From a virus (lineage: Duplodnaviria; Heunggongvirae; Uroviricota; Caudoviricetes), in the IMG/VR virus record IMGVR_UViG_3300020050_013219: 64,000 nucleotides of DNA; one strand, 5' to 3'. The notes beneath the pieces are model-generated. The model worked only from the letters and a program-made list of their open reading frames with translations. It was not told the DNA's origin and made no database searches. Of the stretch, positions 10,373 through 35,415 are shown one piece after another; position 1 is the stretch's first letter; every line of letters begins with the position of its first letter. The position numbers and the translations under genes are program-made.

Positions 10373-10516
10373 CTTTTATTAGTTGTTGAATCATTAATTT
10401 CTGCAACATAGACATTTTAGGTTTAGGATAATTTATAATTTCAGGTTCTTCAATTGGCTCATAGCTAATACTACTTACTACTTTCCATTCTTTCTCATTT
10501 TTAAATTTTTTCATAG

Positions 10517-10587
10517 CAGAGCTGCAAGGGATTGAACCTCAATCTTCTGAACCAAAATCAGACGTAATACCTTTATACCACAGCTCA
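10517..10587 (-). tRNA. tRNA-like gene, non-canonical (short D-arm); anticodon loop TTTTGGT gives anticodon UUG (Gln) as the tentative reading
   Basis: Minus-strand sense sequence has a GGTTCAATCC T-arm, a 5-bp anticodon stem TCTGA/TCAGA with a 7-nt loop, and a 6-7 bp acceptor stem GAGCTG(T)/(G)CAGCTC. The D-stem is only about 3 bp. It sits in a 220-nt gap between minus-strand genes. Confidence 0.5.
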
Positions 10588-12732: not shown

Positions 12733-14457
12733 TCAATATGTTAGTGTATTAAGTTTAATAAATTTCTTTACAACTGCTGTACTGTTAAGTAAGCTCTCTG
12801 TTAATGAAGCAGCACTATCTAAAATATTACTTGTTTCAATATCTTCATATTTAAAAGTTCCAAAATTGAATAATTCACTTTCCGTAATATAGTTTCCATA
12901 AATCACATCATAATTTTGATAACCACTTTTACACATAATTTGCAAACCTGTTTTAAGTGCTTCAATTACAGCTTCATATCCCATTAAAATTTCTTTATCT
13001 TTTGGTAAACTCTTTTCAAGCATTGAAGCAATATTAATATCTGTCCAAGCTCCTCCTGGCAACACACCTGATTTAACTGCTGATGAACAAGCCATAAGAG
13101 CATCTTCTACTAAATATTTATTGGTTTGAATTTCTGTAAGAGAATTACCACCTACATAATAAGTACAACTAACTGATTTAAGTCTGTTCATTCTATCTGC
13201 ATGATTTTTAATCAATTGACCATCAGTAACATCTGCTGCATCAAATTCTTCATTAAGCATGTCAATGTAAGCATCTGTAACTTCCTTTGCAGTATTAAAC
13301 TCAAATATACAATTTTCTGCTGTTAAAGTAGCTGATTTAATTTGAAGCTCATAAAACGGGGAAGGACTATCATCTTGTACATCTTTAATATGAGTTTTAT
13401 CTTTTAATATTGCATTTTTCTTCCAAACTAAATCATAGAAGACTTCACCATTTTCAGTGCTTTCCATTAGTTCTGCTGAAGCCATAGCACAAATATCTTC
13501 AAATTGCTTATCAACTTCTTGACCATAAGTATCTACTTTACAAATAAATATTGGTATGTTATAAGTTTTTTCCATTTCTCTTGCCATTTCAACCAATGAA
13601 GGATTTAATTCCTTTACAATAAAAACAACAGGACTTGTATCTCTCATTACCCTACGATGTATATTTTTGGTTAAAACACCAAAAGCATCTAACTTTCCGT
13701 TGTAAAGAATGATTCTTGGATTTTCCAATTTTGGCGGAATATTAACATTCACACTTGGGGATTTAATTGTAATAATATAACCAGTCTTTTTAACTACTTT
13801 ATCTTCATAAGATATTCCATCTTCAAAATCAATACTTATTCCCCAATCTTTCCTGTCAATTTGGCTGTAAAGAGACTTAATGTTATTTGCAACTTTTTCA
13901 TTTCCATGTGAACTTGTGTAAGCTATTTTCCATAAATCTTGAAGTTCTACATTTCTTTTGTTTGTAGCTATGTATGCAAGTGCTTGATTAACAGCAAGTT
14001 CAATACCTTCTTGAATTTTATAAGGATTTGGACTTTTAATCATTTCTTTTATTTTTGTAAAGAAACCTTTGTTTGTGATAAGTCTTTGCAGCATTGTGTG
14101 AATCATAGCAATAGTTCTTGTTGTTCCATCACCTGCAATAAAAGCTGTTTTTTGGGCTGCTTCAAGAATAAGGCTTGCTATAATATTTTCAGCTTCTCCT
14201 TTAAGTGGTAATAAACTCTTTGCCACTGTAACACCATCATTTGTAATTTCTGCTGTATGTCCAAATACAGTTTCTTTTTTAAATATGTGATATTGTCCAT
14301 TAGCTCCCATTGTTGCAATTACAGGAATTGCTAAAGCTTCACTTGCAAGTTTTACTGCTCTTTTAACATCTTTAATAGTAACTTTTCGCCCATCAAAGAT
14401 TTGCTCATTTCCACTGTTCATTAATTTATCATGTATGCTGTTCATTGTTAAGCTCAA
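12733..14457 (-). CDS. GroEL-family chaperonin (phage-encoded Hsp60 homologue)
   Basis: 574 aa. 'ITNDGVTVAKSL' matches GroEL ITKDGVSVAREI, 'AGDGTTRTIAMI' matches AGDGTTTATVLA, and the C-terminal 'VEDALMACSSAVKSGVLPGGAW' matches [21 protein letters not shown]. Confidence 0.85.
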   Translation of the reverse strand: MSLTMNSIHDKLMNSGNEQIFDGRKVTIKDVKRAVKLASEALAIPVIATMGANGQYHIFKKETVFGHTAEITNDGVTVAKSLLPLKGEAENIIASLILEAAQKTAFIAGDGTTRTIAMIHTMLQRLITNKGFFTKIKEMIKSPNPYKIQEGIELAVNQALAYIATNKRNVELQDLWKIAYTSSHGNEKVANNIKSLYSQIDRKDWGISIDFEDGISYEDKVVKKTGYIITIKSPSVNVNIPPKLENPRIILYNGKLDAFGVLTKNIHRRVMRDTSPVVFIVKELNPSLVEMAREMEKTYNIPIFICKVDTYGQEVDKQFEDICAMASAELMESTENGEVFYDLVWKKNAILKDKTHIKDVQDDSPSPFYELQIKSATLTAENCIFEFNTAKEVTDAYIDMLNEEFDAADVTDGQLIKNHADRMNRLKSVSCTYYVGGNSLTEIQTNKYLVEDALMACSSAVKSGVLPGGAWTDINIASMLEKSLPKDKEILMGYEAVIEALKTGLQIMCKSGYQNYDVIYGNYITESELFNFGTFKYEDIETSNILDSAASLTESLLNSTAVVKKFIKLNTLTY

Positions 14458-22544: not shown

Positions 22545-22618
22545 GGGTTTATAGCTCAATTGGTCAGAGCAACTGACTCATAATCAGTAGGTTACAGGTT
22601 CAAGTCCTGTTAAGCCCA
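22545..22618 (+). tRNA. tRNA with CAU anticodon (Met or Ile2-lysidine type; elongator-like, with G1-C72 paired)
   Basis: Full cloverleaf folded by hand: acceptor GGGTTTA/TAAGCCC, D-stem GCTC/GAGC, anticodon stem ACTGA/TCAGT, loop CTCATAA, T-stem ACAGG/CCTGT, T-loop TTCAAGT. 74 nt. Confidence 0.9.
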
Positions 22619-22642
22619 CAAAAGACAATTAGCTGAAATATC

Positions 22643-28296: not shown

Positions 28297-28460
28297 ACTT
28301 AACACAAACAGAAATATATCTAATTTTAGAAGCATTAAATCTTCATTATTTGGGGATTTACAGAGTTCTTGAAAAACCTGATAAATTGGGAGATATTGAG
28401 AAGAAAAATCTCATAGAAACTCAATTGTTATTAACAGAATTAATCAATAAATTAAAATGA
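28293..28460 (+). CDS. Small ORF (55 aa) ATGA-coupled at both ends
   Basis: Hand-translated MNLTQTEIYLILEALNLHYLGIYRVLEKPDKLGDIEKKNLIETQLLLTELINKLK. It fills what would otherwise be a 160-nt gap. Confidence 0.45.
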   Translation: MNLTQTEIYLILEALNLHYLGIYRVLEKPDKLGDIEKKNLIETQLLLTELINKLK

Positions 28461-30592
28461 ATTTTCAAACATTATTAACTAAAATCCAGTCTCAATTTGA
28501 GGCTATGTGTGCCACAGGTAAGTTGTATATTTCTTCAGTTGATGGAGAAACATTATGGCAGACTTATCTTAGTTCCTTTAAACCTAAAAATAATCCTATT
28601 TGGAGGGTAAATTCAGAACATGATGGTAGAAATGACCACAACTTTTTCCGTAGATATGCAAATATCGTTGCAATCAAAAATGGTAAAATTATTTCTATTT
28701 TTGATACAATTGTAGATGAAGAATATGCTGACAGCTATAATGCTTGCAAAGAATTATTGACAAATGCTCCTATTGAAGGTGTATTTGTTCAAACTTACAA
28801 TAAACTTGTGAATCTTCCTTATGAAAAATCTAAGCCTAATCAAGCTTATTACAGATTGGGCATGGAGAAAAATCATGTGCAGTATAAAGCTGATAATGCT
28901 ACTACTTTGGAAAGTGAAAAGGCAAAAGGCAAAGAGATTGGTAAAGTTTATACTTTTTATCATTACAGTATCAATATCCCTAAGCAATTCATTGACTTTT
29001 CAAATAAATCCAAAGAATCAATTTTTGGAGAGTTGCAAACAACGAAACAATTATTTCAAAAAGGTTTGTTAATTCCTTTGGAAACACTTGAACTTGTGAG
29101 AGATTTGATTCAGCAAGGTTCTTTGTATAGAGGAGATATTTATCTTCAAAAAGTTCTTGACTTTATCAAAATAAGAAAAGATTATGAACTTTCCACAAAC
29201 AAAGAGTTTTTCATTCTTGAAAACTTTTGGAAGACACCATTTGCAAGATTTGCCAATGAATTAATAGGAACAACTTGTATTGAACTTGCAGAAGGAAAAG
29301 AAATTAATAAAGTAGTTGATAGTTTCAATTTTAGAGTTGACCCTGTTAATTATCAAAAAGCTAAAAATCTTGAAGTATCTGAAAAAGCAAAAGCAGAAGC
29401 TGAAAAGAAATTGAAAGATTTAGGTTATTTGACTGAAACAAACAATTCTTTCAACAGAAGATATGCTACTATTGAAGATATTAATGTTAGTGAAATAAAA
29501 CATACTAATGTTGATAACACAGTAGAGAAACCACTTGGCTTGTTTGGTAAAGTAGGAGTTCCAACAACAGGATTTAGCAGACATAAAAGAGCTGAATTTG
29601 ATAAAGTAGAAAGTGTTACTATTGACAAGTTTATGAAAGATATTCTTCCGACTGTTACAAGTATGGAAGTATTCTTGGAGAACAAATTCAATAATAATTT
29701 AGTTGCTTTATTTACAGCAGCAGAAGAAGCTAAAAATCTAATGAAATGGAGTAATCCTTTTAGTTGGACTTATGAAAATAACTTGTCAGGAGTTTCTCAA
29801 ATCAAAGAACAGGTTAAGTCCAAAGGTGGGAAAGTTGATGGTGTACTTAGATTTAGCATGATGTGGGCTGATGGTAATGGTGATAACAGTGATTTAGATT
29901 TACATTGCATTGAACCAAGTGGTAATGAAATAATGTTTAATAATAATTACAATAGTAGAACAGGTGGAAATCTTGATATTGACATTACACAACCAAATGG
30001 TAGATTAGCAGTGGAAAATATTACTTTTCCAAATCTAAGCAAAATGCAAGAAGGAGTTTATAAATTATTTGTTCGTCAATTTGCGGCAAGAAACTCAAAA
30101 GGTTTTAAAGCAGAAGTTGAATTTAATGGAGAATTATATTCTTATTCTTATAATCAAGCTGTTTATGGAGATATTCATGTAGCAGAAGTTACTTTAAAAA
30201 ATGGAATATTTTCTATTAAACATATACTTCCTGCAACAGAAGGAGAAGCAGCTAATAGAACTATTTGGAATCTTGAAACAAATCAATTTCATAAAGTAAA
30301 TTTAGTTTGTGAATCTCCTAATCATTGGGGAGATAACAAAATTGGAACAAAAGAATATTTCTTTATGTTACAAGATTGTAAGTCAGACAAAGCCATGAGA
30401 ACATATCATATTGACCAGTTAAATTCTGAACTTATTCCTGAAAGAAAGGCTTTGGAACTTTTAGGTCAATATATGACTATTGAACCTGCTGAAAAACAAT
30501 TAGCAGGATTAGGATTTAATAGTACGGTTAAAGGAGAAGTTATTGTTAAAGTAAAAGGTTCTCATCAAAGAGTATTAAAAATTCAATTATAA
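28457..30592 (+). CDS. Large hypothetical protein (711 aa) with a Gly/Asp-rich motif 'MMWADGNGDNSDLDLHCIEPSGNEIMFNNNYNSRTGGNLDIDITQPNG'
   Basis: Longest ORF of the early region. I could not place the motif in a named family. Confidence 0.75.
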   Translation: MNFQTLLTKIQSQFEAMCATGKLYISSVDGETLWQTYLSSFKPKNNPIWRVNSEHDGRNDHNFFRRYANIVAIKNGKIISIFDTIVDEEYADSYNACKELLTNAPIEGVFVQTYNKLVNLPYEKSKPNQAYYRLGMEKNHVQYKADNATTLESEKAKGKEIGKVYTFYHYSINIPKQFIDFSNKSKESIFGELQTTKQLFQKGLLIPLETLELVRDLIQQGSLYRGDIYLQKVLDFIKIRKDYELSTNKEFFILENFWKTPFARFANELIGTTCIELAEGKEINKVVDSFNFRVDPVNYQKAKNLEVSEKAKAEAEKKLKDLGYLTETNNSFNRRYATIEDINVSEIKHTNVDNTVEKPLGLFGKVGVPTTGFSRHKRAEFDKVESVTIDKFMKDILPTVTSMEVFLENKFNNNLVALFTAAEEAKNLMKWSNPFSWTYENNLSGVSQIKEQVKSKGGKVDGVLRFSMMWADGNGDNSDLDLHCIEPSGNEIMFNNNYNSRTGGNLDIDITQPNGRLAVENITFPNLSKMQEGVYKLFVRQFAARNSKGFKAEVEFNGELYSYSYNQAVYGDIHVAEVTLKNGIFSIKHILPATEGEAANRTIWNLETNQFHKVNLVCESPNHWGDNKIGTKEYFFMLQDCKSDKAMRTYHIDQLNSELIPERKALELLGQYMTIEPAEKQLAGLGFNSTVKGEVIVKVKGSHQRVLKIQL

Positions 30593-30804
30593 TGTCAAAA
30601 ATAATAGAAATAACAGAAGTTAAACCTTCAATTTCAACATTACCTGATGGTAATTATTTAGGAGTTTTATCTGGATATGTGATAAAGCTAAAATACAAAG
30701 ATAAATCTTACGAACTTAAAGTTAATAATGGAATCAGAGGAACATCTAATGTTCTTGTTAAGTTTGAAGATGGGGAAGGTACATTTGAATTGTTAGAAAA
30801 TTAA
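30592..30804 (+). CDS. Hypothetical protein
   Basis: 70 aa ORF with a TAATG overlap. Confidence 0.5.
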   Translation: MSKIIEITEVKPSISTLPDGNYLGVLSGYVIKLKYKDKSYELKVNNGIRGTSNVLVKFEDGEGTFELLEN

Positions 30805-30805
30805 C

Positions 30806-31099
30806 ATGACAAGCAAATTATTAAAAGAAACATATTGTTTGAGAAGAAAATATTACCTTTTCAAGCAGTATGTTTTTGATTACCAAAAGAAGTTACAAGC
30901 ATTTGAAATGTCAAATTTATTACTGGAATTTCCTGATAAACAAGAACATTTTGATTCAATGTTAAAAACTTACAAACAAAGTCTTTCAGATATGTTTCAT
31001 AAATTGAAAATTATGAAAGATGAATTATCTAAATATCCACATATTCCAAACAAGTCTGAAAGAAAGAAAATCAGACAAACTAAAGCTAAAAGAAAATGA
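30806..31099 (+). CDS. Hypothetical protein
   Basis: 97 aa ORF. Confidence 0.55.
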   Translation: MTSKLLKETYCLRRKYYLFKQYVFDYQKKLQAFEMSNLLLEFPDKQEHFDSMLKTYKQSLSDMFHKLKIMKDELSKYPHIPNKSERKKIRQTKAKRK

Positions 31100-31482
31100 A
31101 CAACGTTCTAAAAGCAAACCAAATTAAGCTCCGTTTTAATACCAATAAAGGTATGTTAAATGTAGAGCAACTTTTTGACATTTCATTAGCTGATTTATCA
31201 GCAGCAATTAAATCTTCTCATAAACTTTTAGGAGAATCTTCATTAGGAGATGATTTATCATTTCTTGGAAGTGCAACAGTAAGTGTAGCAAATCAAACAG
31301 AGCAACTTAGATTTGATGTAATGAAAGAAATATATCAACTGAGAAAATCTGAACTTGATGCTGCTAAAGAAGCAAAAGAAATTAAAGCTCATAATGAGAA
31401 AATTGATGCTTTGATTGCTCAAAAACAAGACCAAAAATTGACAGAAATGTCAGTTGATGATTTGATGAAATTACGCAAATGA
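31096..31482 (+). CDS. Hypothetical coiled-coil protein
   Basis: 128 aa ORF. Confidence 0.55.
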   Translation: MNNVLKANQIKLRFNTNKGMLNVEQLFDISLADLSAAIKSSHKLLGESSLGDDLSFLGSATVSVANQTEQLRFDVMKEIYQLRKSELDAAKEAKEIKAHNEKIDALIAQKQDQKLTEMSVDDLMKLRK

Positions 31483-31640
31483 AAAACATAATATTCTTTA
31501 TCTTAGCAGCAATATTAACCCTGTATAGTTTAACTTTTACAGGTCATTATTTTTTACAATATCCTATTACTATTGTAGTAGGATATTTACTTTATTTTTC
31601 AGTTTTATTTCAATTTTACAAACTAATTCAAAAATTATGA
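31479..31640 (+). CDS. Small two-TM membrane protein (53 aa), ATGA-coupled to both neighbours; NfeD-like partner candidate of the SPFH gene
   Basis: Hand-translated MKNIIFFILAAILTLYSLTFTGHYFLQYPITIVVGYLLYFSVLFQFYKLIQKL. Confidence 0.45.
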   Translation: MKNIIFFILAAILTLYSLTFTGHYFLQYPITIVVGYLLYFSVLFQFYKLIQKL

Positions 31641-32476
31641 AAAAATTATTAGGTATTTTAACAATTTGTTTTATGATTGCTTGTACAACTATTCAGCAAA
31701 ATGAAGAAGGTGTAGCAATTCACAGAACTGAAACAGACAGCTCTAAGGTTTACAGCTCTGTAAAGGGTAGAATGTTTACTTTCTTTGATTGGAATACAGA
31801 TTATATTCATATTCCTATGTATCAACAAAAAGGTACAATTTCTTCTCAAGAAGTAAAAACAAGTGATAGAACAACTTTTACACTTGATAGTATTATTTAT
31901 ACTTATCAACCTAACAGAGGACATGGTCAGCAAATAACAAAGCAATTTAGACAATTTGCTAATAACGCAGAATTTCTTGATATGGTAGAAGACCAAGTGT
32001 TTGAGATTACTTTACGTGCTTTGATGAGAGATTTAACACTTAAATTTACTTCTGATTCATTATTATCTCATACAAATAATTATGTTGCAGCTTTGAGAGA
32101 AGGTTTGAACAAAGAATTTAATAATAAAGGTTTTGATTTTCAGACTATTACAATGAATATCCATGAGCCAGAAGCTATTAAAAAAATCATGGAAGCTAAA
32201 TCTAATTCTATACAACAAGCTGAAGCTGCAAAGGCTAAAGCTACTGAAGCTCAATCAAGAACTCTTATCATTGAAGCTGAACAAAAAAGTAGAATAGCAG
32301 AAGCAAAAGCTGATTTGGAAGTAGCAACTTTGGAAGCTGAATCACGTAAAGTTACTGTAAATTCTTATTCTCCTGCTTATTTGGAATATTTGAGAATCTA
32401 TTATTGGGGAGAAGCAAAATGTCCACCTCAAACAATATTCTATAATGGAAATCAAAGAGTTGAGTTAAACAAATAA
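31637..32476 (+). CDS. SPFH/Band-7 (stomatin/HflKC-like) domain lipoprotein
   Basis: Lipobox '...FMIAC'. SPFH-like core 'TSDRTTFTLDSIIYTYQ ... ALREGLNKEFNNKGFDFQTITMNIHEPEAIKKIMEAK'. Ala/Glu-rich C-terminal coiled coil 'AEAAKAKATEAQSRTLIIEAEQKSRIAEAKADLE'. Confidence 0.6.
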   Translation: MKKLLGILTICFMIACTTIQQNEEGVAIHRTETDSSKVYSSVKGRMFTFFDWNTDYIHIPMYQQKGTISSQEVKTSDRTTFTLDSIIYTYQPNRGHGQQITKQFRQFANNAEFLDMVEDQVFEITLRALMRDLTLKFTSDSLLSHTNNYVAALREGLNKEFNNKGFDFQTITMNIHEPEAIKKIMEAKSNSIQQAEAAKAKATEAQSRTLIIEAEQKSRIAEAKADLEVATLEAESRKVTVNSYSPAYLEYLRIYYWGEAKCPPQTIFYNGNQRVELNK

Positions 32477-32483
32477 TTCATTA

Positions 32484-32515
32484 GGAAGCTCTTAATTGAG
32501 CTTTCTTTTAACTTT
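32484..32515 (+). terminator. Intrinsic terminator candidate (stem ggaagctc/gagctttc with one G-U pair, loop ttaatt, then ttttaactttttatt)
   Basis: Read directly, 8 nt after the stop of the SPFH gene. Confidence 0.55.
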
Positions 32516-32520
32516 TTATT

Positions 32521-33675: not shown

Positions 33676-34064
33676 ACTTATCAATTAAATTTCACAATAA
33701 TGGTTGGGCAAAATTCTCTATCAATGGGAATATTCAAGATATTTCAGCCCTCACAGGATTTGGCAGATGTACTAAATCAATCGGTTTATCACTTGAGGAA
33801 GCATTACAGGCGGTTAAAGCTGATAAACAATACAAACTTATCTCTTGGTGTGAAGGTGCTGATTTAATTATAGATTTTATTCCTATACCAGAAGGTTATC
33901 AATTTGTAGCTGAAATCCAGGATGAAGATAAACCTCACAGAGTTTATGAAGTTATTTGTAATGAATTAATCGAAAAACAAAAATTAGTAATATTACTTCA
34001 AAACTTGATAGATTCTATTAATGAAGAAGAATATTTGGCTTACTTAAAATACAATGAATTATGA
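33663..34064 (+). CDS. Hypothetical protein (track start is TTG; the real start is probably the ATG at about 33672, in ATGA overlap)
   Basis: 133 aa ORF. Confidence 0.55.
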   Translation: MVKMNLSIKFHNNGWAKFSINGNIQDISALTGFGRCTKSIGLSLEEALQAVKADKQYKLISWCEGADLIIDFIPIPEGYQFVAEIQDEDKPHRVYEVICNELIEKQKLVILLQNLIDSINEEEYLAYLKYNEL

Positions 34065-34375
34065 AACAAATAATTTTTATTATAACATTGCTATTTACTT
34101 TTCAAGTAAAGGCACAAATGGAGTTAATGAGTTCTCCAAAAGTTGAAATTCTTGATACATTGAAAAATCAAGAATGGGTAAATTTTTATATGAACAAACC
34201 AGTTATATTCATCAAATTAAAGAAAGACAAAGTGGACTTTTTTTGTGATGGATATAGAAAAAGGTTAAAATACTGTTATTATTGGTGGTATAAAGCTATA
34301 AAAATCAATGACTTTGAAGTTGTAGTGTATCAATATACTTATAAAATTAAAAAATCAGAAATTGCAAGACCTTAA
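34061..34375 (+). CDS. Secreted protein (signal peptide MKQIIFIITLLFTFQVKAQ)
   Basis: 104 aa ORF. Confidence 0.55.
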   Translation: MKQIIFIITLLFTFQVKAQMELMSSPKVEILDTLKNQEWVNFYMNKPVIFIKLKKDKVDFFCDGYRKRLKYCYYWWYKAIKINDFEVVVYQYTYKIKKSEIARP

Positions 34376-34377
34376 TC

Positions 34378-35415
34378 ATGGCAACAAATAAAAAAATATT
34401 TAAAAAGAAGTTGGAAGCTTTGGAAAAGTATCATCTTACTAATCCAAGCTATTCAGAAGAAGTAAAAACTTCTGAAAAAGGAAATCATTATATTACTACT
34501 AATCAAAGTAAAGAATTAAGAACTTATAATTCTTATAATATTACAAAATCAGTAGTTGATAAGTTGGGAACTAATTTTACTTTTCCTGCAAATCAGAGAT
34601 TAATAATGCTTACTCAAACAGGTAAGTTTATTGTTAAAGAAGAAAGAGGTTGGAAAAATCTTACCAAGAAATATGGAGAATTGTACTATGTTGGTAAGAA
34701 ATTTGAATGGGTTTTGCAATATCCAGAATTAAAATATTTCAGGATTGTGAGACAATTTAGTTCTCTTAACGGCTTCAAAAAATGGCTTGAATATGAGTTT
34801 ATTTCAGATGATGAGTTTATAAGCTTGTTAAATGATAAGTTCAATGTAGAGCTTTTAATTGAGTTTAAATTGAAATCAAAAGATGAGAGAGTTAATCTTA
34901 TTAATCTTTTGAAACTCGGAGAAACTCAAACTGTAAAAGATACACTGAACATGCTTAAACAGCTCAATGTTCAGCATGAAATTCCAAAAGGTAAAAATGC
35001 TTTAAAAGAATTGCATGATAACTTATCAAGACAAATAAAGGTTAAGAATACTCCATTAATTGAAGTAAAAGTAACTTTGGAAGATTTTCATATTCCTTGG
35101 GATTACAAAATAATTCAAACAAGTTATGAACTTGTAGAAAGAGGGATTGAGAATAACCATTGTATAGGTTCTTATTACAACAGTTTGTTTAATGATGTAT
35201 TTCTTGTAATTGAAGGTTATGATTGCCATGTAAGAAAAGATTATGACAATAAATGGTATATTTCTCAAATGAGAGGTGCTTATAATAAAGGTGCAGGAAA
35301 TGAAATGTTGTCAATTATCAATACAGCTTTGGAGAAAATTAAAGTAAATATTGTAACTTTAAGTAATATTCCTGTTACAGAAGAAGTATTTTCTCTTGAT
35401 GATACTCCTTTTTAA
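34378..35415 (+). CDS. Hypothetical protein
   Basis: 345 aa ORF. Confidence 0.65.
   Translation: MATNKKIFKKKLEALEKYHLTNPSYSEEVKTSEKGNHYITTNQSKELRTYNSYNITKSVVDKLGTNFTFPANQRLIMLTQTGKFIVKEERGWKNLTKKYGELYYVGKKFEWVLQYPELKYFRIVRQFSSLNGFKKWLEYEFISDDEFISLLNDKFNVELLIEFKLKSKDERVNLINLLKLGETQTVKDTLNMLKQLNVQHEIPKGKNALKELHDNLSRQIKVKNTPLIEVKVTLEDFHIPWDYKIIQTSYELVERGIENNHCIGSYYNSLFNDVFLVIEGYDCHVRKDYDNKWYISQMRGAYNKGAGNEMLSIINTALEKIKVNIVTLSNIPVTEEVFSLDDTPF

Follow-up and report, generated by a model that had tools for sequence, protein, structure and literature searches.

In the virus record IMGVR_UViG_3300020050_013219 (Caudoviricetes) we analysed a stretch of 64,000 nucleotides (nt), hereafter the window, and in it a pair of adjoining plus-strand genes. 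The first is a 53-amino-acid (aa) open reading frame (ORF) at 31479-31640 whose product is a predicted hairpin of two transmembrane (TM) segments; the second, at 31637-32476, encodes a 279-aa SPFH/Band-7 lipoprotein of the prohibitin/HflK-like type. The start and stop codons of the two ORFs overlap in an ATGA at 31637-31640, and a 128-aa ORF (31096-31482) precedes them, its TGA stop sharing bases with the ATG of the small ORF. The window is a phage genome, encoding a portal protein, a large terminase subunit (TerL), a DNA polymerase and a helicase. As described below, an SPFH (lipo)protein gene of this kind is almost always found together with a gene for a two-TM protein of ∼55-70 aa.

A first-pass annotation of this DNA, made from the letters alone, had named the larger product an SPFH/Band-7 lipoprotein with a lipobox and an Ala/Glu-rich C-terminal coiled coil, and had staked this on a match to an SPFH profile. 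Such a match is present: Pfam Band_7 (PF01145) recognized the protein with an E-value of 6e-10 (39.9 bits, gathering cutoff 23.6) over residues 18-204, i.e. profile positions 2-174 of 176, and phrog_200 ('lipoprotein') did so with an E-value of 2.5e-24. When a profile of 41 family members was compared with PDB sequences, the best matches were PHB2 (8.6e-8) and PHB1 (1.3e-7), followed by QmcA and HflK (4e-3). The closest sequences are prohibitins, and the initial assignment to stomatin specifically was not upheld. The AlphaFold2 model of the monomer (mean predicted local distance difference test score, pLDDT, 78; most of the core > 90) comprises an SPFH alpha/beta core, a continuous 64-residue helix (residues 179-242; nt 32171-32362) and a short second helix. 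The long helix is the Ala/Glu-rich segment expected from the first reading; it aligns to the coiled-coil region of prohibitin and HflK, and the window coiled coil is ∼20 residues longer than that of the proteins related to gp165 of Cellulophaga phage phi4:1 (phi4:1-type proteins). Foldseek matched nearly the full length of the model to cage subunits of prohibitin, stomatin, HflK/C, erlin, flotillin and QmcA-YbbJ (E 7e-13 to 3e-9); the alignments to all of these except flotillin are recorded as spanning 270-310 columns. Towards the C-terminus, in a region of low model confidence, lies a motif WGEA-x-CP-x-QT (residues 258-266; nt ∼32408-32434) with a second conserved cysteine, C262; it is particular to the window clade and absent from the phi4:1 and crAss clades.

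The N-terminus of the protein reads as a lipoprotein signal peptide, MKKLLGILTICFMIA|C, encoded at 31637-31684, with a lipobox M-I-A-C that ends at Cys16 (codon 31682-31684). This cysteine is invariant in the 41-sequence alignment, and [S/A]-C follows a hydrophobic leader in 120 of 120 retrieved family members. The SPFH domain begins ∼8 residues past Cys16, and E24 and G25 are likewise invariant. Judged by its sequence, the 279-aa product is an SPFH protein with a predicted lipid anchor where an N-terminal helix would normally stand, and with a domain predicted to be exported; it is because of the lipoprotein signal that we place the SPFH domain on the periplasmic side. The family is large (> 2,300 SPFH clusters at E ≤ 1e-5), and phages and giant viruses often encode SPFH proteins. 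The window protein itself is a member of a rare, divergent clade, with only three relatives of ≥ 57% identity among 5.8 billion clusters, and when the 3-kb region was compared with phage records by blastn, one weak partial match was all that emerged. Single-sequence scans, of the window protein against viral contigs and of phi4:1 gp165 against genome contigs, found no relatives; those in viral and genome contigs were retrieved with alignment queries instead. Neither the hairpin nor the SPFH protein had a match in NCBIfam or PADLOC, and a known defence or anti-defence system was dropped as a candidate on this ground.

The 53-aa ORF had been proposed as a two-TM mini-protein coupled directly upstream of the SPFH gene, and this too was confirmed. 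A hydropathy scan showed two hydrophobic segments, separated by a nine-residue loop (TGHYFLQYP) and flanked by basic termini, and the positive-inside rule predicts a hairpin with both ends in the cytoplasm (N-in/C-in). The conserved element of the loop is H/K-Y-x-L-x-Y-P. Searches of Pfam, PHROG, NCBIfam, PADLOC and PDB gave no match to the hairpin; even at E-values up to 1, Pfam had none for the 53-aa ORF or for 18 relatives, and the hairpin profile compared with PDB and Pfam found no relative among NfeD, YbbJ or holins. Members of the hairpin family range from 47 to 92 aa. A terminator scan also picked out a 13-pair inverted repeat, AATATCCTATTAC...GTAGTAGGATATT, at 31558-31587 within the small ORF, where it covers the codons of the conserved YPITIVVGY loop and the start of the second TM segment; it could be due to chance, or be an RNA element that affects translation of the SPFH gene.

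In its three closest relatives, in which the SPFH protein is 57-61% identical to that of the window, a two-TM ORF of 51-60 aa stands at the same place and keeps the K/H-Y-x-L-x-Y-P loop. Homologous ORFs occupy this position in the loci L005, L006 and L007 (E 1e-22 to 1e-27 with a hidden Markov model, HMM, built within the clade). A short hydrophobic ORF might arise by chance in AT-rich DNA such as this (28.5% GC), the SPFH gene alone being real: 18% of the other 45-85-aa same-strand ORFs in related loci also scored as two-TM with a crude predictor, and many published annotations omit the ORF. We find this explanation barely credible, given that the loop motif is conserved at such SPFH divergence, that within-clade HMMs matched partner ORFs only (among 7254 ORFs), that the ORF is still present where it has switched from one flank of the SPFH gene to the other, and that it is fused in frame to the SPFH gene in several lineages.

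The same companion gene was seen in a wider sample. We examined 80 IMG/VR loci and reference phages, most of the loci being crAss-like, which together represent 19 SPFH clusters. All 19 have kept a two-TM ORF of 51-75 aa; in 14 of them it ends between -8 and +13 nt from the SPFH start, and the remaining five have a recognizably related copy directly downstream, one gene upstream or ∼1 kb upstream. Conservation of the small ORF in related phages, on which the first-pass annotation had made its proposal depend, was thus found, and it extends to bacterial genomes: a scan of genome contigs with the phi4:1-type alignment yielded 48 Bacteroidota loci, and in 46 of these a homologous hairpin ORF abuts the SPFH gene on its upstream or downstream side. 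Several of these loci, in Runella, Riemerella, Taibaiella and Flavobacterium, lie in non-prophage contexts. With neighbours judged by eye, the Runella pair adjoins a large transporter-like membrane protein and the Riemerella pair lies between RecF-like and peptidase E-like genes. The module occurs in chromosomal settings and is therefore cellular as well as viral.

The association also held in the reverse direction. The hairpin profile alone retrieved 142 small proteins, none of them named or with a domain, and three of the four that we looked up are encoded directly upstream of a Band_7 gene. The fourth comes from a crAss-like genome (L149) that has lost its SPFH gene by a clean deletion. Compared with the locus L002, this variant (1501-1773 on a 99-kb contig) keeps the hairpin ORF but lacks both the SPFH gene and the one after it, so that the hairpin tail is joined to the sequence downstream; the resulting 90-aa product is present on six contigs.

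Outside these groups, among Ackermannviridae, two-TM ORFs abut the SPFH lipoprotein gene in the Kuttervirus phages PhiSH19 and CBA120 (orf127A) and, unannotated, in Erwinia phage Bue1. The cyanophage S-CREM1 of Synechococcus has a two-TM ORF as well, 24 nt upstream of its SPFH gene, but there the SPFH product lacks the lipobox cysteine. Several such small genes, two-TM ORFs of 60-72 aa next to the SPFH (lipo)protein gene, are missing from the deposited annotations: those of PhiSH19 (L009, 2432-2650, minus strand), Bue1 (L141, 1304-1498) and Leptolyngbya phage Lbo-JY46 (L003, 2811-2993); CBA120 lists orf127A as 'hypothetical protein'.

In at least six lineages (P0008, P0010, P0012, P0076, P0095 and Filimonas zeae L119), hairpin and SPFH protein are a single ORF. 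P0008 and P0010 are close variants, and P0008 occurs on three contigs; Filimonas zeae is the bacterial case and the others are phage. The P0008 fusion (L143, 3001-3972) arose, relative to cr85_1, when one nt was lost from an A4 run in the overlapping segment, whereas P0095 (L142, 2068-3027) and L119 (2815-3780) read through from hairpin to SPFH in one frame, uninterrupted by a stop codon. The order within the fusions is hairpin, signal peptide, SPFH domain. This order is consistent with an N-in/C-in hairpin followed by an exported domain, i.e. both predicted topologies are kept.

The gene layout had been likened to the operons in which SPFH genes are coupled to NfeD genes. NfeD proteins are defined by a C-terminal OB-fold, to which long forms add a ClpP-like domain. 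Pfam detected an NfeD OB-fold neither in the 53-aa ORF nor in any of 19 family members, and PDB searches gave no match to YbbJ; there is likewise no ClpP-like domain. A 53-aa product leaves no space for either, and the hairpin family as a whole, at 47-92 aa, could not accommodate a ClpP-class domain. What stands of the proposed layout is the coupling of an SPFH gene to a gene for a small membrane protein, as in QmcA-YbbJ, YqiK-YqiJ, FloT-YuaF/NfeD2, FloA-NfeD1b and PH1511-PH1510; the partner is not NfeD. In contrast to those operons, the partner here is a hairpin with neither OB-fold nor protease domain and with no Pfam model, and the SPFH domain is predicted on the opposite side of the membrane, as QmcA and other SPFH proteins with an NfeD partner are oriented towards the cytoplasm (PMC13086221). 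NfeD-type partners are believed to associate with the SPFH subunit and to aid its oligomerization (PMC13086221; PDB 8z5g).

A truncated NfeD, reduced to its membrane helices, would make the locus a degenerate SPFH-NfeD operon. The layout does resemble that of SPFH1, SPFH2 and SPFH5 with NfeD (PMC2636767), and NfeD has N-terminal TM helices and stands 1:1 with SPFH in QmcA-YbbJ (PDB 8z5g; PMC13086221). We nonetheless rate this origin as very improbable: the OB-fold is absent throughout the hairpin family (19 scanned, 142 found), the family is uniformly short, the window SPFH protein is predicted to be periplasmic where QmcA-type proteins are cytoplasmic, and its nearest relatives are prohibitins, while a survey of prokaryotic SPFH proteins listed no NfeD partner for the prohibitin-like SPFH4 or the HflK/C-like SPFH3 (PMC2636767). 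The hairpin does not belong to NfeD, and 'stomatin-NfeD-like' is an analogy of gene layout only.

The closer comparison is with HflK/C and prohibitin, which give the best sequence-profile matches and full-length fold matches that include the long wall helix. There, as here, the SPFH domain comes right after a membrane anchor and faces the periplasmic side, an orientation that is predicted from the signal peptide in our case. The differences lie in the anchor, an N-terminal TM helix there and a lipobox cysteine predicted to be acylated here; in the number of subunits, a heterodimeric pair of paralogues there and a single SPFH gene here; and in the partner, with FtsH or m-AAA enclosed there and a dedicated two-TM hairpin here. 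The SPFH profile matched exactly one ORF per related locus, the window having been scanned over a 10-kb segment around the pair.

All solved SPFH relatives form rings or cages that fence off membrane, and those that face the periplasm or the intermembrane space, HflK/C and prohibitin, hold FtsH-type proteases. We propose that the locus is a phage copy of a module also present in Bacteroidota chromosomes, and we favour, with moderate confidence, a two-gene membrane module in which a periplasm-facing, lipid-anchored SPFH ring has the hairpin as its membrane-spanning part. The SPFH protein would carry a cleavable lipoprotein signal in place of the N-terminal TM helix, and its mature form would hang by the lipid anchor on the periplasmic side and, by analogy with the solved relatives, most likely assemble via the long helix into a membrane ring or cage. 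The hairpin, predicted to have its two termini on the cytoplasmic side and a short, conserved loop in the periplasm, would be made together with the SPFH protein through the ATGA coupling, and is a single polypeptide with it in some relatives; most likely it is the membrane-spanning subunit of the same complex, supplying the part that the SPFH protein lacks. A 1:1 ratio of hairpin to SPFH protein is suggested by the coupling and the fusions. Transcribed with replication-side genes of the phage, the pair would most likely form a complex that, in the infected cell, fences, shields or reorganizes part of the host cytoplasmic membrane. For SPFH cages that face the periplasm, the model case is regulation of a membrane protease, FtsH for instance, and such control may be the target here.

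Several observations weigh against this proposal. The residue after Cys16 is Gly, and under the Lol sorting rule of Enterobacteria-type hosts a Gly after the Cys directs a lipoprotein to the outer membrane; in such hosts the lipoprotein would be carried away from an inner-membrane hairpin. The AlphaFold2 model is that of a monomer, so that the ring state is predicted only, and its last 21 residues have pLDDT < 50. Natural deletions in crAss-like phages show that the SPFH protein is dispensable, and three loci, L111, L126 and that of Acinetobacter phage Ab15, have no partner. The partners in Kuttervirus and Bue1 have long basic loops, from which their topology is probably inverted. Nor do the hairpin HMMs cross between the window, phi4:1 and crAss clades when one clade is left out, and hhalign gave a probability of 33% for window versus phi4:1 (with the Y-P loop aligned) and nothing in comparisons with the crAss clade. 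The partners of different clades could thus be analogous rather than orthologous, and because neither HMMs nor hhalign connected the clades, we do not claim that all hairpins are homologous or that they form a single partner family. Finally, a 2026 paper describes the role and presence of SPFH lipoproteins in phage as unexplained (PMC13239085).

The setting of the pair in the window bears on when it would act. At least six genes, from 28457 to 32476, are packed or overlapping without gaps, and the hairpin-SPFH pair lies at their end. Four plus-strand genes precede it (711, 70, 97 and 128 aa; 28457-31482) and are probably co-transcribed with it. They are not kept beside the pair in relatives, where the neighbours differ, and their PHROG matches are phrog_1735 and phrog_2018. 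The 711-aa protein that heads the run (28457-30592, plus strand) matched phrog_1735 with an E-value of 4e-182; its copy in L008 carries the precomputed Pfam label DUF8224, and in relatives it is not linked to the pair. The minus strand encodes the portal protein, the large terminase subunit and a GroEL-like protein, and the plus strand, downstream of the pair, the DNA polymerase and helicase. The pair thus shares strand and block with the replication genes, ∼4 kb upstream of the DNA polymerase. Its place among replication-side genes, in the window as well as in phi4:1-type phages and Kuttervirus, favours an action before lysis. We found no FtsH gene adjoining the pair in the window.

The first gap after the packed run is 44 nt long and lies directly 3' of the 279-aa ORF. 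It contains a hairpin at 32483-32506 with nine pairs, followed by a T-rich tail (32483-32516 in all), that was found by pattern scan and folding. The predicted energy of -12.5 kcal/mol compares with -4.4 ± 2.0 for shuffled sequences (z = -4.1), and none of 200 shuffles was as stable. With a stable GC-containing hairpin, a U-tract and an intergenic position the element has the sequence features of an intrinsic terminator, and we term it a putative terminator. In L006 the SPFH gene is followed by a similar hairpin (-20.8), and in L003 by another (-19.2) that has a T-run. A terminator-like hairpin is thus present where one had been assigned to the pair, but it closes the whole packed run (at least six genes, 28457-32476) and does not belong to the pair alone.

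Other features of the window were noted in passing. The GroEL-like chaperonin (12733-14457, minus strand; phrog_5725, E 2e-62) is on the same strand as portal and terminase. Downstream of the pair, a 104-aa protein (34061-34375, plus strand) has an N-terminus that by eye looks like a signal peptide (MKQIIFIITLLFTFQVKAQ), and it is followed by a 345-aa PcfJ-like protein (34378-35415, plus strand) whose match to PF14284 is at the cutoff (E 1.9e-5). The window has two tRNA genes, tRNA-Gln(UUG) at 10516-10587 (minus strand) and tRNA-Met(CAU) at 22545-22619 (plus strand).

A position among replication-side rather than late genes, and two products that are both predicted envelope proteins, would also suit superinfection exclusion, in which an early inner-membrane hairpin and a periplasmic lipoprotein together block DNA entry or receptor function for later phages. 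Systems to which this could be likened are the two-TM protein Imm of T4, which acts with Sp, and the lipoproteins Llp of T5 and Cor of phi80. In Kuttervirus the pair directly follows, and overlaps, a gene annotated 'superinfection exclusion', and in Bue1 a gene with this name lies ∼1 kb downstream; moreover, the SPFH gene is dispensable in the crAss-like deletion variants, as expected of an accessory fitness gene. These labels are annotation only, however, and no PADLOC model is similar. The chromosomal pairs in Runella, Riemerella, Taibaiella and Flavobacterium argue instead for a general membrane function, and it also counts against exclusion that we know of no exclusion protein with an SPFH fold. 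On balance we judge an exclusion module to be unlikely. Exclusion and remodelling of the host envelope had both been suggested by the first-pass annotation, and both are conjecture.

The hairpin resembles class II holins and T4 Imm-type proteins in size, in its two TM helices, in the predicted N-in/C-in topology and in its basic C-terminal tail; it differs in having no profile similarity to them, in being tied to an SPFH gene, not to an endolysin gene, and in occurring in bacterial chromosomes as well. By hydropathy and charge it fits the class II holin architecture, a description that is not holin-specific, and the window showed neither a holin-family match nor an adjacent endolysin gene; a glucosaminidase gene adjoins the pair in crAss-like loci only. 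The pair could be related to lysis, with the hairpin as a class II holin- or antiholin-like protein and the SPFH protein as a scaffold or restraint, so as to set the timing of lysis or to aid export of a secreted endolysin. Some neighbourhoods point that way. In crAss-like Asinivirinae we see the order hairpin, SPFH, multi-TM ORF of ∼100-117 aa, and signal-anchored glucosaminidase/peptidoglycan hydrolase; an 'Rz-like spanin' is annotated 0.7 kb upstream of the pair in Bue1; and the Kayvirus SPFH protein MbpS is encoded between lysK and tgl, beside the holin-like MbpV (PMC7150955). Lysis-cassette-like loci of the Asinivirinae are L004 (3777-4609), L032 (1909-2690), L087 (3549-4350), and L148 and L150 (2470-3192).

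Against this, we searched for lysis genes near the pair in the window and found none, and there are none near it in phi4:1-type phages or Kuttervirus. The best holin-family E-values were 0.07-0.11, each for one hairpin member, and are not significant; cellular non-prophage copies exist; the natural deletion variants survive; and in the crAss loci the separate multi-TM ORF beside the hydrolase is the more obvious holin candidate. A role in lysis therefore seems quite improbable to us. A spanin-like arrangement, with an outer-membrane lipoprotein and an inner-membrane partner, was rejected, as the hairpin has no periplasmic domain, the module has cellular non-prophage copies and SPFH deletion variants persist.

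SPFH lipoproteins as such are already known from phages. Annotated 'SPFH domain' or 'band 7 family' lipoproteins (phrog_200), which share family and lipoprotein signal with the window protein, include gp165 of Cellulophaga phi4:1; those of the Kuttervirus phages CBA120 (orf126), Vi01 and Sajous1 (gp200); those of the T4-like phages 44RR, Aeh1 and RB43; and that of the N4-like phage GIB1. Their function has been left unexplained (PMC1524935, PMC3220722, PMC10892097, PMC13239085). For the conserved hairpin partner and for hairpin-SPFH fusions we found no description in the literature that we searched, which is not proof of absence. Sajous1 gp200 was retrieved three times by mass spectrometry of virions (PMC10892097), and the annotation note of phi4:1 gp165 begins 'part of structural ...'; such low-level detection of homologues in virion preparations is probably membrane carry-over. 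An OmpA-family gene (PF00691) lies just downstream of the pair in phi4:1 (gp167; L001, 3892-4875), and another ∼3 kb downstream of it in the large phage-like contigs L145 and L146 (7625-8698), which carry P0111.

Taken beyond this locus, the module of SPFH ring and membrane-spanning hairpin may be a widespread two-component membrane-cage system of Bacteroidota, in which a hairpin of 50-70 aa replaces both the SPFH TM helix and the NfeD partner, and which has been captured repeatedly by phages, reinvented in Proteobacteria and cyanobacteria, and used to wall off the host inner membrane, e.g. against FtsH-type quality control or competing phages. We offer this broader scheme tentatively and think it possible at best. 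As far as the window is concerned the outcome is modest: an already annotated phage family gains a divergent member, together with an overlooked partner gene. Cages of HflK/C, prohibitin, stomatin and flotillin have been solved only recently, and their contents and the influence of partners on their form are current questions; a pair of hairpin and SPFH protein, coupled or fused, would offer a compact system for the study of an SPFH scaffold and its partner. Culturable phage-host systems have the pair, namely Cellulophaga phi4:1 and Kuttervirus of E. coli and Salmonella, as do many crAss-like gut phages, and it would give a first experimental handle on phage SPFH lipoproteins.

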